Shown here: positions 1-8,666 of the stretch, in pieces
Layout of the letters: each line of letters starts with the position of its first letter
How positions within the stretch are numbered: the first letter of the stretch is position 1
Source of the DNA: a virus
Lineage: Duplodnaviria > Heunggongvirae > Uroviricota > Caudoviricetes
IMG/VR virus record: IMGVR_UViG_2671181050_000002
Strand: one strand, 5' to 3'
DNA length: 12,542 bases
Notes under the pieces: generated by a model
Seen by the model: the letters and a program-made list of their open reading frames with translations, nothing else
Databases searched by the model: none
What the model was told of the DNA's origin: nothing
Position numbers and translations under genes: made by a program

Positions 1-101
1 AGGCGGAATATATGCGTCACCTTCACCAATAAATTCATTAGTTCCGGCCAGCAGATTATAAATTTTTATGGTCCGTGCTTGTTCACTCATTCTGAATGCC
101 A
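1..101 (-). CDS. tfa: Tail fibre assembly protein Tfa, 5' end only (gene continues beyond window start)
   Basis: Minus-strand translation from ATG at 101-99 gives [34 protein letters not shown], matching the lambda Tfa N-terminus as recalled; the ATG overlaps the upstream stop (TAATG). Confidence 0.8.
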
Positions 102-2198
102 TTATGCAAGCCTCACAATATAGTTAAATGCGATGTTTTTGACGGTGTTTTCCGCGTTACCCGCAGCGTTAACGGTGATGGTGTGTCCATGTGAGCCAAT
201 CGCAACGGAGTGCGTATGAGCACCAATACCGACAGTATGTGCATGTGCGCCTGCGCTTGCAGCAGTGCCGGACAGCGAGTGGGTATGAGCACCATCTGAT
301 GATGTCTTCCCTGCATTACGAGTCTGGCCACTACCGCTTGTTGTGCTCATAATCCCCGCGCTTGGATTTGAAATCGCGGTATAACCATTAGGGAAAATGC
401 TCGTGTTCGTGCCACCAAATGCACCGGAACTCTTGTGTTGGTGCGCGCCGGCACTATTTGCGGTCCCGCTAATACTATGGGTATGCGCCCCGGTGTTATT
501 CGTGGATTTGGTTCCGTAATCAAACGACGATGTGGTTTTCGTCCCCAAATCCGTACTGGATGCGCTGGCGCTGTGGGTGTGCGATTTAATGCCGTCCTGT
601 TCCTGAGACAATACGGCGCGACCACTGGCAGGTTTGCCCTTAATCGTCCAGCCACGCATATCAGGGATCACGCCTGACGGATAAGCGGCTGCAAGTTTCG
701 GGTATGCAGATTTGTCAAAAGTCTGCCCCTGCATCAGGGCATAACCAGACGGAACGGTATCTGATGGCCACGGGATTGGTGCGCCGACTGGGTAGCTTTC
801 TGGTGGAAGATTTTTCGAGGTATAAACTTCTGCCCAGTCTTCCTCAAAACCATAGCCATCTCTTGAGGAACGGTAGAACAGACCTCCATTTCTGTAATGT
901 GCCTTCACCCCCTTCACCACCTTCGGCGTGTCCCAGCGCGCCAGCACCTGATATTCCCCGCTGTCTGCGGTGACTTCGGCAGTCAGGTGCTGCACCGCTG
1001 GCGGCGTGACATCATTCACCGTGCCGCTCTGGTCGCCGTCAAAGTGCGCCCCGTTATCCACGATGGCTTCTTTTTCCGGTACATGCTGCACGGCAGTGAT
1101 GGCATACGTGCCGTCATCGTTCTCACGGATACTCACACAGCGGAACAGGCGCTGACGCAACGTCGGCAACTTCAGCCCCCACACACTGTATTCTGCAACG
1201 CCGTCAGGAACCCGGTTCACTTTCACCTTAAGTCCGTCGGTGACGGACTGAACCTCCACGCTGACCGGACTCCCCTGCCCGTCAACCAGGCTTATCAGCG
1301 TGGTGCCGGAAGATGGCAGCGTGATTTCACGGTCGAGCGTCAGCGTCCGGGTCTGGCTGTTCACCGCCAGCACGCGACCACCGGTGCTGATACCGGCATA
1401 GTCATCATCGCAGATTTCAATGACATCGCCCGGTACATGGCGAAGCCCTTCAGCACCCACGCTGAAATCCACGGTCTGCGTCTCCAGCAGTTCCGTTTTA
1501 ATCAGCCACAGCCCGGCGCGGTGTGCCTGCCCCCGGCTGGTACAGCCAAAGGCATCCATCTTCGTGACATTACGACCGTAACGGGCAATGGCCTGCGTAT
1601 CTTCAACAAGCTCTGTCGCCGTCTCCCAGCCGTTGTTCGGGTCAATCCAGTTCACCTCAACGGCATTATGGCGGTCCTTCAGGGCGCTGAAGCTGTAGCG
1701 GAACGGCGCGCCATCATCCGGCATCACCACATTACTGCGGTTATAGGTCCACACCTTATCTGATGGTCGGTCCTGCACGAACGTCAGCGTCTGCCCGTTC
1801 CATACCGGCATACAGCGCATCGCCGAGCAGAAATCACTGAGCACATCCCACGCCTTACGCTGTGTGGTCAGCCAGGCATTACAGGTGATGCGCGGCTCCG
1901 TGCCGCCAAAACCATTCGGTACCAACTGGTCGCAGTACTGGCCGATGACATACAGCGTCCATTTATCCACATCTGCTGCACCAAGACGTTTCCCCATGCC
2001 GTAGCGCGGATGGGTCAGCATATCCCACAGACACCAGGCCATGTTGTTGCTGTATGCTGGCTTAAACGTTCCATCCCAGATACCGCTGTATTGCCGCGTC
2101 TGCGGGTTATAGTTCGACGGCACCTGCAGAATGCGCCCGCGCAGATGATAATTACGGCTCACCTGCTGGCTGCCGAACTGCTCCGAGTCCACCTGCAC
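102..2198 (-). pseudogene. Chimeric tail-fibre remnant: central part of host-specificity protein J (ORF aa 1-431) fused in frame to the C-terminal ~265 aa of side tail fibre Stf (GAHTHS His-box repeats, ends [11 protein letters not shown])
   Basis: 698-aa ORF from the six-frame track. Its N-terminal part ([41 protein letters not shown] ... [12 protein letters not shown]) matches the middle of lambda J as recalled; after residue ~431 it switches to Stf-like C-terminal sequence. The first codon is GTG in the middle of J sequence with no ribosome-binding site, and the upstream A fragment is in another frame. Confidence 0.7.
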
Positions 2199-3088
2199 GC
2201 CGACCAGTGCCGTGTTCGGGTATCCCCTTTCGTCTTCATCCAGTCTTTGACAATCTGCACCCAGGTGGTGAACGGGCTGTACGCCGTCCAGATGTGAAAG
2301 GTCACACTGTCCGGCGGCTCAATCTCTTCACCGGATGACGAAAACCAGAGAATGCCATCACGGGTCCAGATCCCGGTCTTTTCGCAGATATAACGGGCAT
2401 CAGTAAAGTCCAGCTCCTGCTGGCGGATGACGCAGGCATTATGCTCGCAGAGATAAAACACGCTGGAGGGGTCATCCGGCGTCCATTTGAGGCCAAACGG
2501 CGTCTCTTTGTCGCCAAATTTAAGATACTGCTCCTCCCCGCAGTGCGGGCAGGCAACATGAAAACGCATAAAATGCGGGGATTCACTGGCTGCACGCTCA
2601 ATCTGGCAGGTGCCTCTCACTTTGGGCGTGGAGCCACGGATGGACTTTGGCCAGACCGAGCCTTCAATACGCTTGTCACCCAGGAACGTCGGAGAGCCTT
2701 CCTGTTCAATATCATCATCAAAAGCAGCAAGTTCATCATAACCCGCCACATCCACCGACTTTTCACGGTAGTTTTTTGCCGCTTTACCGCCCAGGCACCA
2801 GAAGCCACGCCCATTAGTGAAACGCTTCATGGTGAGCGTGTTATCCCGGTGCTTTTTGCCATACCACGGGGCCAGCGCCAGCAGCGACGGAATATCACGA
2901 ATAGTCGGCTCAACGTGGGTTTTCATAAAGTTCTCGGCATCACCATCCGTCGGCAACCAGATAAGGGTGTTGCGCTGCTTATGCTCTATGAAGTAGGCAT
3001 AAACACCCAGCAGCATTTTGGAATAACCAACACGGGCAGACTTCACCACATTCACCTCGCGGATGTAGTCACTGCCCATCGCATTCAT
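2159..3088 (-). pseudogene. A: Terminase large subunit (gpA) internal fragment, lacking the N-terminal ~65 aa and the entire C-terminal half
   Basis: Translation (…)[67 protein letters not shown] ... [15 protein letters not shown] matches lambda gpA as recalled, then 19 out-of-frame codons derived from J sequence before the stop at 2159. An internal ATG at 3088 is the only possible start. Confidence 0.8.
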
Positions 3089-3201
3089 GATGGCCCGCTG
3101 CCACCTCCGGAGACGCAAGGGAGTCCCTGAGACTGCCAGCGTTCAATCGTTCGCGGATCCACGTTGAAAATTTCGGCAAGTTTCTTTTTATTAACCTTCA
3201 T
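3085..3201 (-). pseudogene. Terminase small subunit (Nu1-like) N-terminal stub, 38 codons
   Basis: ATG at 3201 gives [38 protein letters not shown], resembling the Nu1 N-terminal HTH region (lambda MEVNKKQLADIFGASIRTIQNWQEQGMP...). The reading frame runs into gpA-derived sequence at about 3097-3100 and stops at 3085. Confidence 0.6.
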
Positions 3202-3225
3202 GAAACAGTCTCACAACAAACACAG

Positions 3226-3337
3226 GGTCCGACATGAAAGTGCCCGAAAATGACTTTTTTAGGCGTTTTCATGTCGGACCTTTTACGGATTCGATATTAG
3301 AAAAAACAAATAGTTATGTTCGAGAAGTACCGACATG
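3226..3337 (-). other. cosB-like region: three R-site-like repeats CATGTCGG(A/T)AC at 3226-3236, 3270-3280 (inverted) and 3327-3337
   Basis: The three 11-mers were read directly; they lie between the cosN-like site and the Nu1 start in the same R3/R2(inverted)/R1 arrangement as lambda cosB, but with a different repeat sequence. Confidence 0.55.
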
Positions 3338-3344
3338 ATTTTCC

Positions 3345-3420
3345 CCGGAAAATTTTCATAAATAGCGAAAACCCGCGCGCCTTCCGCCCCGTAACCTGTC
3401 GGATCGCCGGAAAGGACCCG
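3345..3420 (-). other. cosN/cosQ-like terminase nicking region
   Basis: Minus strand reads CCGACAGGTTACG GGGCGGAAGGCG CGCGGGTTTTCGCTATTTATGAAAATTTTCCGG. The flanks match the lambda cos sequence as recalled (…ACAGGTTACG GGGCGGCGACCT CGCGGGTTTTCGCTATTTATGAAAATTTTCCGG), but the central 6 nt of the 12-nt cohesive-end core (3378-3389) differ. Confidence 0.65.
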
Positions 3421-3588
3421 CAAAATGATAATAATTATCATCTACATGTCACAACGTGCATCTACGCCATCAAACCACGTCAAATAATCAATTATGACGC
3501 AGGTATCGTATTAATTGATCTGCATCAACTTAACGTAAAAACAACTTCAGACAATACAAATCAGCGACACTGAATACGGGGCAACCTC

Positions 3589-4878: not shown

Positions 4879-5148
4879 CTACTTCACTTTTGCTTTTGCT
4901 TTTGCTTCCGCTCGCTTACGCCGGCGCTCTTCTTTCCTCTCGGCTTTTGCCATGTCCATGAATGCCTGCATGATCGAGTTCCGCATCATGTAGCTAACAA
5001 AGTGATGATTGACACAGCCGTTGAGGCGCAGCTGCTCGCCAAACTCATCCACCGAGGCCAATGCTTCCATCATGCCCTTCTCGCCTTTCATGAACTCTGA
5101 GAAGTCGCGCCCCGCTCTGGAGGCGCATTCAATGACACGATCACTCAT
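4879..5148 (-). CDS. Hypothetical protein (89 aa) with a Lys/Arg-rich C-terminal tail
   Basis: ORF MSDRVIECASRAGRDFSEF...KAERKEERRRKRAEAKAKAKVK; its ATG overlaps the stop of the upstream KilA-N ORF (ATGA), suggesting translational coupling. No homolog recognised. Confidence 0.4.
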   Translation of the reverse strand: MSDRVIECASRAGRDFSEFMKGEKGMMEALASVDEFGEQLRLNGCVNHHFVSYMMRNSIMQAFMDMAKAERKEERRRKRAEAKAKAKVK

Positions 5149-5641
5149 CCCGGAAGCCCGGGGATCGTAATCTGCAGCTGGTTAGCCAGGGAGTTAATCT
5201 CAGCGACCAACACTGGCTTCGTATAGCGCCATGCTGCCAGCCCTTGTCCGCAGAAGCTCGCCATGTCTTTCTTCTGGTCAAACTCATGACATTTCATGTT
5301 GAGCTGCGCACTTAAGCTGTTGCGATGCTGAAGTTCTCCGGTGAAGTAGTCATCGAGGACTTTATAGGCCGCGTACTTGAACCCGGGGTTTAACCAAGCC
5401 GCATAATCGTAAGCAACAAACTTCCCGCCATATGTTCCACCGTGTACACCGCGCTCAGTAAAAACCACAGATTCGTGGTTTTTCTCCAGCTCGGCTAAGA
5501 ACTCTTTGGTCTGCTTGTTTCGCAGGTAGTGGTAAGGCGATTCAGATTCACTTTTACCACTGGCTTTCCACATACAGTGAGGCAGATCATGCCATCTTCA
5601 CCGATACGAATTGGTTGATTGAAGAGGGTTAATGATTTCAT
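5145..5641 (-). pseudogene. KilA-N domain protein with an apparent -1 frameshift near 5571-5576; intact downstream ORF is 5145..5573 (142 aa)
   Basis: The 142-aa ORF contains KilA-N/APSES-like motifs (SPYHYLRNKQTKEFLAELEK ... GGTYGGKFVAYDYAAWLNPGF). The expected N-terminal strand MKSLTLFNQPIRIGEDGMICLT is encoded from ATG 5641 in a different frame and stops after 47 codons. Confidence 0.5.
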
Positions 5642-7583: not shown

Positions 7584-8666
7584 ATGAAAAAATTAACAGT
7601 GGCAATTTCTGCTGTAGCTGCATCAGTACTGATGGCGATGTCTGCTCAGGCAGCTGAAATTTATAATAAAGACAGTAACAAGCTGGATCTGTACGGGAAA
7701 GTTAATGCTAAGCACTACTTCTCCTCTAATGATGCAGATGATGGTGATACTACTTATGCCCGTCTTGGCTTCAAAGGTGAAACCCAAATCAACGATCAAC
7801 TGACTGGTTTCGGTCAGTGGGAATATGAATTCAAAGGCAACCGCGCTGAATCTCAAGGTTCCTCCAAAGATAAAACCCGTCTTGCCTTCGCTGGCCTGAA
7901 ATTCGGTGACTACGGCTCCATCGATTACGGCCGTAACTACGGTGTAGCATACGACATCGGTGCATGGACCGACGTTCTGCCAGAATTCGGTGGCGATACC
8001 TGGACCCAAACAGATGTATTCATGACTGGTCGCACCACAGGTGTTGCAACTTATCGTAACAACGACTTCTTTGGTCTGGTTGATGGCCTGAACTTTGCAG
8101 CTCAGTATCAGGGCAAAAATGACCGAAATGAAGTAACTGAAGCTAATGGCGATGGTTTCGGTTTCTCAACTACTTATGAGTATGAAGGATTCGGCGTGGG
8201 TGCAACCTATGCTAAATCTGATCGCACTAATAATCAGGTTATCTACGGTAACAACGGTCTGAATGCTTCTGGTCAAAATGCTGAAGTATGGGCAGCTGGT
8301 CTGAAATATGATGCGAACAACATCTATCTGGCCACCACCTATTCTGAAACCCAGAACATGACTGTTTTTGGTAATAACCATATTGCCAACAAAGCACAAA
8401 ACTTCGAAGCTGTTGCACAATATCAGTTCGACTTCGGCCTGCGTCCATCCGTTGCTTACCTGCATTCTAAAGGAAAAGACTTGGGTGTTTGGGGTGATCA
8501 GGACCTGGTTGAATATGTTGATGTAGGTGCAACCTATTACTTCAACAAAAATATGTCCACTTTTGTTGACTACAAAATCAACCTGATTGATAAGAGCGAT
8601 TTCACGAAAGCATCTGGCGTTGCTACCGATGATATCGTTGCTGTAGGTATGGTTTACCAGTTCTAA
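7584..8666 (+). CDS. nmpC: Outer-membrane porin, NmpC/OmpD-like (OmpC/OmpF/PhoE family), apparently intact
   Basis: 360 aa; signal peptide [23 protein letters not shown] then AEIYNKD...; C-terminal VGMVYQF typical of general porins; closely matches DLP12 NmpC as recalled. Confidence 0.85.

Follow-up and report, generated by a model that had tools for sequence, protein, structure and literature searches.

The window analysed here, a stretch of 12,542 nucleotides from a tailed-phage record (IMGVR_UViG_2671181050_000002), contains a cos region that looks complete beside the remains of terminase genes, and its cohesive end departs from that of lambda at five of twelve positions. The question is whether such a site has been inactivated, belongs to a packaging-specificity class of its own, or carries a natural form of a working cos.

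Our analysis revealed a complete lambda-family cos on the minus strand at window positions 3420-3224, the phage orientation being the reverse complement. In this orientation, a cosQ box is followed by cosN with the 12-bp cohesive end GGGCGGAAGGCG, by a tripartite cosB, and then by a stub of the small terminase subunit gene (terS):

3409 to 3420, minus strand: cosQ box, with GGGTCCT at 3419-3413; 12/12 against the phage 21 box
3376 to 3391, minus strand: cosN, reading ACG/GGGCGGAAGGCG/CGCG, with a CG dinucleotide on each side
3389 to 3378, minus strand: cohesive end GGGCGGAAGGCG, from direct reading and alignments
3346 to 3360, minus strand: position equivalent to I2, an IHF site of phage 21; 13/15 against the I2 annotated in M81255
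3325 to 3340, minus strand: R3 box AATCATGTCGGTACTT, phage 21 type, 15/16; the critical TerS-binding site
3304 to 3318, minus strand: position equivalent to the IHF site I1, between R3 and R2; 13/15 against phage 21 I1
3267 to 3282, minus strand: R2 box, inverted relative to R3 and R1; 16/16 against phage 21 R2
3224 to 3239, minus strand: R1 box; 14/16 against phage 21 R1
3201, minus strand: ATG start codon of terS, at bp 189 from the cohesive end

The first-pass annotation had described a complete-looking cos with a triple R-repeat and an inverted R2, and both descriptions hold. The cosQ, cosN and cosB elements are all present on the minus strand, and the motif CATGTCGG(A/T)AC occurs three times in the R3/R2(inverted)/R1 layout (3327-3337, minus; 3270-3280, plus; 3226-3236, minus) and nowhere else in the 12.5 kb. 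The expected number was 0.34, and none of 200 shuffles reached three; a repeat scan of the window also recovered the inverted arrangement of R2. The cosQ box is the packaging-termination signal, labelled “R4” in the phage 21 record M81255. Its columns were invariant in alignments of four and of seven sequences, and its distance from cosN was conserved. R3 occupies bp 50-65, numbered from the first base of the cohesive end, which is the spacing of R3 in lambda (PMC9026076).

The class of cosB was evident from the alignments with lambda and phage 21. Over 3150-3480, the window matches the phage 21 cos at 84% identity and that of phage IdasGreatGrand at 97%, whereas the lambda R boxes (CGTTTCC...) in the same alignment columns are clearly unlike those of the window. 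Two positions in R1 and two in I1 depart from phage 21, and the I0 region is poorly conserved (7/15). Lambda and 21 have cosQ and cosN in common and discriminate more than 1000-fold via cosB and TerS (PMC4669245). Judged by these matches, the cosB of the window is of the known phage 21 packaging-specificity class and is not a new one. The earlier suggestion of a specificity other than that of lambda was thus correct, but the repeats are not distinct, since they match the R boxes of phage 21 as listed above, and the alignment places this cosB in an established class.

The cohesive end is where the window departs from phage 21. Lambda DE3, phage 21 and IdasGreatGrand all have GGGCGGCGACCT, while the window has GGGCGGAAGGCG: bp 7-12 read AAGGCG instead of CGACCT, so that five of the six bases (7, 8, 9, 10 and 12) are changed and only C11, the symmetric partner of G2, is kept. 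The left half GGGCGG and the CG dinucleotides at both nick sites are likewise unchanged. The lambda sequence CGACCT, as first given, was confirmed at bp 7-12 in the lambda DE3 record. The six divergent bases had also been read correctly, but they were misplaced as central: they form the cosB-proximal half of the cohesive end.

The positions conserved in cosN are the flanking CG pairs and the left half GGGCGG, and mutations at bp 7-12 had minimal effects, whereas the symmetric changes at bp 1-6 were severe (Feiss et al. 2015, PMC4669245). This asymmetry reflects the anchoring of TerL, the large terminase subunit, by cosB-bound TerS, and no cosN specificity was found in lambda and N15-hybrid terminases (PMC4669245). 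The window allele retains every cosN position reported as conserved in that study, and agreement with CGACCT at bp 7-12 does not count in the literature as a defining mark of a lambda-like cos. Natural variants at bp 7-12 include N15 and phiD326 (bp 9 and 12) and Gifsy-1 (bp 8, 9 and 11) (PMC4669245). In the records, the end of N15 reads GGGCGGCGTCCG, and an end GGGCGGCGCGCT was inferred for mEp213 and LLS. Since five changes in six exceed those of any allele tested experimentally (two in N15, three in Gifsy-1), tolerance of the window allele is an extrapolation from these cases. As a separate observation, phage PhiR70_1 (PV340577) has the allele GGGCGGAGACCT, in which bp 7 alone is changed, adjoining intact lambda-type terminase genes.

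A paper by Vahanian et al. (2017; Virology 509:140) is reportedly devoted to natural cosN variation. The open-access literature gave only unrelated plant and Streptomyces papers for the 12-mer GGGCGGAAGGCG on either strand, and a literature search for the PhiR phage names found nothing relevant. None of the phage records searched begins at GGGCGGAAGGCG.

The occurrence of the allele was surveyed with a 60-nt probe across cosN, which was run on complete E. coli genomes, plasmids and phages. The complete E. coli genomes gave four identical full-length matches and approximately 64 at 95-99% identity, canonical sites falling at approximately 92%; the resulting figure of about 70 E. coli replicons is an estimate from these identity bands, with the allele confirmed by sequence in three. 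Furthermore, 22 plasmid records matched the probe, those of recorded size being approximately 46 kb, and two phage records, YDC107_1 and PhiR46_1, carry the allele. All seven of the probe-matched records that were read in sequence had AAGGCG together with a lambda-type cosB, an intact 181-aa Nu1 and a 641-aa A protein; by locus, the allele was confirmed in L014-L018 and L020. PhiR46_1, a telomere phage-plasmid like N15, has a full complement of lambda-type head and tail genes. An exact-pattern scan of IMG/VR recovered 78 contigs with the AAGGCG allele, of which 55 have a cosB of lambda type, 18 of 21 type and four of a third type, one contig ending too early for assignment. A metagenome scan for AAGGCG combined with the 21-type R3 flank added two contigs, and in nine of the resulting 20 loci with a 21-type cosB (18 from IMG/VR and two from metagenomes) TerS has 181-182 aa and TerL 638-641 aa. 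The allele usually adjoins intact genes for a 181-aa TerS and a 641-aa TerL.

AAGGCG is nevertheless uncommon. In an unselected sample of lambda-like cosN sites of IMG/VR with the six positions left free, the matches listed comprised at least 116 CGACCT, at least two AAGGCG and at least one CGACCG, a split that puts AAGGCG at approximately 1-2% of lambda-like cos sites among those matches. A scan of one genome per species, allowing any 6-mer at bp 7-12, found only canonical CGACCT at Escherichia/Shigella sites, and none of the best 40 full-length matches among 5,426 complete E. coli genomes exceeded 97.2% identity to window 3180-3460.

Several observations from the survey stand apart. Four IMG/VR contigs (L027, L036, L080 and L088) follow the AAGGCG cosN with a third cosB flank, TTTTCGCTATTTATGAGCATTTTAAGGGGACTGGTGGTGGTTTTGTTGTT..., which is neither lambda- nor 21-type and in which a pattern search found no Nu1- or gp1-like start; this flank may mark another packaging-specificity class. 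In approximately 27 of the 78 AAGGCG contigs (within L025-L101), the flanks on the cosQ side are strongly diverged, for example GCGGGTCCTTCCGGTGGGGTGGCCTGCC or TGTGGGTCCTTCTGATGACCTGAGCTCTC, which suggests that the allele may be old and perhaps came from more distant lambdoid lineages. Stretches identical to the lambda cos region were seen in Raphidiopsis brookii D9 (L010), Aeromicrobium sp. (L011) and a plasmid of Alicyclobacillus fastidiosus (L012), and a Bacillus thuringiensis CT-43 plasmid (H179) matched the 60-nt probe at 91.7%, as expected for canonical cosN. These four are most simply explained by contamination of the assemblies with lambda or a cosmid vector.

We infer that the intact relatives carrying AAGGCG are functional, since their reading frames are open and PhiR46_1 has been deposited as a phage. 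GGGCGGAAGGCG might define a second cohesive-end compatibility group of lambda-, 21- and N15-like phages, in which chromosomes that were cut from mixed concatemers and have one canonical and one variant end, mismatched at five of twelve positions, would fail to cyclise. We consider this unlikely. If true, the allele would be a partial reproductive barrier, or a means of escape from interference by cos relics and satellites with canonical ends, and relic sites would be live targets of recombination and cutting only for phages of the matching cosB class.

The occurrence of the allele also bears on the idea that the change in cosN is an inactivating lesion, favoured by selection or tolerated, by which a cryptic prophage would be spared cutting of its chromosome by resident or incoming terminases. 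The clustering of five substitutions within 6 bp, in surrounding DNA that is approximately 97% conserved, fits this idea, as does the prior loss of the terminase of the element itself. However, at least 44 independent loci have exactly this 12-mer adjacent to intact terS and terL; among them are three types of cosB and N15-like phage-plasmids that look complete, and a change specific to a dead prophage would not be so widely common. In addition, the important positions, namely the left half and the flanking CG, are untouched. A lesion is thus very unlikely.

Could AAGGCG instead mark a terminase whose nuclease specificity has evolved with it, and hence a separate cosN-specificity class? Five of the twelve cohesive-end positions differ, and the allele recurs as a discrete type rather than as a spectrum, as such a class might be expected to do. 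We aligned 79 complete TerL proteins from the surveyed loci, of which 44 came with AAGGCG, 33 with CGACCT and two with other alleles. In no column were the two groups (44 versus 33 sequences) fixed for different residues, and the majority residue differed in three columns only. TerL identity between the groups was 97.5%, intermediate between the two within-group values, and lay at 96-99% across groups; the alleles are interleaved among nearest neighbours, with the same allele in the nearest neighbour in 48 of 79 cases. Co-evolution of TerL with the allele was rejected on the lack of any fixed residue difference among the aligned proteins. Together with the lack of cosN specificity in the lambda and N15-hybrid enzymes (PMC4669245), this makes a separate cosN class very unlikely.

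As far as sequence comparison can tell, AAGGCG is a natural, rare cosN allele, and neither damage nor a change of specificity. The initial alternatives of an inactivated site or one of a different class both give way to its occurrence beside intact terminase genes and three cosB types, and to the lack of a covarying residue in TerL. The same combination of an altered right half, an unaltered TerL and three types of cosB is the strongest natural support we found for the published view that TerS anchoring, rather than local sequence, directs nicking of the bottom strand.

The state of the surrounding element accounts for the isolation of the site. Deletion junctions were mapped by local BLAST against intact relatives and show 2-4 bp of microhomology. 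The remnants and junctions next to cos are as follows:

3085 to 3201, minus strand: terS stub of phage 21 gp1/nohD type, 38 codons, ATG at 3201 and stop at 3085
3101/3100: first junction, removing 587 bp; terS codon 34 is joined out of frame to approximately terL codon 57
2211 to 3100, minus strand: internal terL fragment, approximately codons 57-352, with 97-98% identity to the intact TerL genes of relatives L004 and L026
about 2222-2211: second junction, joining approximately terL codon 352 to an internal part of J
1 to 2222, minus strand: internal J fragment (905-2222) and C-terminus of the side tail fibre, from local blastn matches
about 907-905: third junction, joining J to the C-terminal part of the side tail fibre

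The terS stub encodes 34 native residues covering the helix-turn-helix, followed by an out-of-frame SGPS and a stop, whereas intact relatives have 181 aa. It is of 21 type through the helix-turn-helix and is without the wing, the oligomerisation domain and the TerL-binding domain. The DNA-binding stub that had been ascribed to Nu1 was borne out in extent by translation, with its start, 38 codons and stop as given above. The only Pfam match of the terL fragment is GpA_ATPase, covering part of the ATPase domain without the nuclease domain. Further on, a chimeric 698-aa open reading frame (102-2198, minus strand) fuses a J part (Phage-tail_3, Ig_J) to the fibre C-terminus (Collar, fibre repeat); that this frame has remained open may be chance. 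The view that the terminase is gone was therefore accurate, terS being a frameshifted stub and terL an internal fragment only. The statement that the element lacks all structural genes was essentially so, although fragments persist: the piece of the TerL ATPase domain, the internal piece of J and the tail-fibre C-terminus.

At the other end of the element, the nin region abuts bet at a sharp junction (11580), and ren, P, O, cII, cro, cI and N have been removed in comparison with relatives L004 and L023. With its replication and immunity region deleted, the element would be incapable of the replication and repression usual for a lambdoid prophage. The genes that remain run in the order bet, nin genes, rusA, Q, porin, S, R, Rz, a KilA-N protein, DUF1398, ylcI and cos, which matches DLP12-type prophages integrated at argU. 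The same defective element was seen independently in IMG/VR contig 3300039332_000035, which agrees with the window at 99.9% over 4845 bp and has the same 38-codon stub. The element is the product of ordinary prophage decay. Two further segments were seen along it. An intact porin gene (7584-8666, plus strand; 360 aa, NmpC/OmpC-like) occupies the place it has in DLP12-type prophages, between Q and the lysis genes, and is preserved amid the decay around it. The closest E. coli relatives do not share segment 4830-5630 (open reading frames 4879-5148 and 5145-5573, minus strand), a variable cargo slot between Rz and cos with genes for a KilA-N/ORF11CD3 protein and for an 89-aa protein without a Pfam match.

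Retention of cosQ, cosN and cosB without any morphogenetic genes could also befit a cos-type satellite (PICI-like) that keeps its cos for packaging by a lambdoid helper, and islands are known that use a cos to hijack lambda-like helpers (PMC9026076). In described PICIs, however, the cos sites are without R boxes of the helper type and rpp replaces terS (PMC9026076), whereas the window has the full 21-type set of R boxes and its adjacent reading frame is a frameshifted deletion remnant of terS. Moreover, the pieces of terL, J and stf next to it are deletion scars with microhomology at their joins, O, P and cI are deleted at the 11580 junction, hence no concatemers would arise, and the gene order is that of DLP12-like prophages. 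A PICI-type replication and regulatory module of its own is absent within the window. A satellite is therefore highly improbable, and helper-mediated packaging of the element, which had been raised with the same caution at first, is speculation. The reading of the allele as an assembly artefact was rejected, as the allele recurs in many independent assemblies.

Taken together, the region is most probably a leftover cos site from a DLP12-like lambdoid prophage that has undergone heavy deletion, with a cosN allele that was natural and working in its ancestors. In lambda and 21, TerS dimers bind R3 and R2, aided by an IHF-induced bend at I1, and the bound TerS anchors TerL, which nicks each strand, the two nicks being 12 bp apart. 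With TerL held in place by TerS on cosB, the half of cosN closer to cosB (bp 7-12) would be free to drift, and AAGGCG is probably such a drifted but working version from intact ancestors. Recombination in the conserved cosQ-cosN block would then have carried it into lambda-type, 21-type and other cosB contexts, and an exchange of this kind would explain how one cosN allele comes to stand with three types of cosB. In the lineage of the window, terS and terL were destroyed and the head and tail genes lost through three illegitimate deletions, which left the cos without a cognate enzyme in cis, as a relic site.

The relic site can probably still be cut in trans by the 21-specificity terminase of a co-resident or infecting phage. 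Such a terminase, with IHF, would bind at R3 and R2 and nick between 3390 and 3389 and at the corresponding position of the bottom strand, and translocation after the cut would proceed towards the terS side, i.e., towards decreasing window coordinates. Productive lambda-like packaging needs a second, downstream cosQ-cosN (PMC4669245). Since neither a second cos nor a replicating concatemer is evident and the replication genes are lost, transducing particles are unlikely. Cutting would mainly stimulate recombination with the phage that supplies the terminase. The defective cos of DLP12 is a documented recombination hotspot with infecting lambda, and half of the lambda-DLP12 junctions adjoin cos (PMC3945230). 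As hotspots of recombination with incoming phages, relic cos sites may thus help to shuffle packaging modules between phages.

The main value of this study is a correction: a cos that looks mutated carries a natural allele, and a cosB that looked new is of the phage 21 class. The cos is genuine and complete, though orphaned; it belongs to a known kind and carries an uncommon natural cohesive-end allele, and its resemblance to known systems differs from part to part. Phage 21 (M81255; gp1/gp2 terminase) shares with the window the cosQ box, the left half of cosN with its flanks, and a tripartite cosB with near-identical R3, R2 and R1 and with the position of I1 and the spacing unchanged. Its TerS also agrees with the window stub over the first 30 residues, recognition helix included, except for K7 in place of R7. 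It differs in having CGACCT at bp 7-12 instead of AAGGCG, and in the terS and terL genes that are deleted in the window. The natural cosN variants of N15, phiD326, Gifsy-1 and mEp213/LLS vary, as the window does, only at bp 7-12 and keep GGGCGG and the flanking CG, and the anchoring of TerL by TerS on cosB explains both cases; with five positions changed, the window exceeds the natural variants named in the papers examined.

The N15-like phage-plasmids (PhiR46_1, YDC107_1, pAH01-1 and pRHBSTW-00124_4) carry exactly the cosN allele and the cosQ-cosN block of the window. Unlike the window, they combine these with a lambda-type cosB and Nu1, intact packaging and structural genes, and plasmid maintenance by telomere and ParAB functions. 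DLP12 resembles the window in the succession of Q, porin, S, R, Rz, ylcI/DUF1398, cos and a truncated packaging gene, and in the presence of a relic cos within a dead prophage. The end-points of the deletions differ between the two, and the window element has a 21-type cosB and a variant cosN. In contrast, L004, the intact relative at the DLP12 site, has a lambda-type cosB and a canonical cosN.
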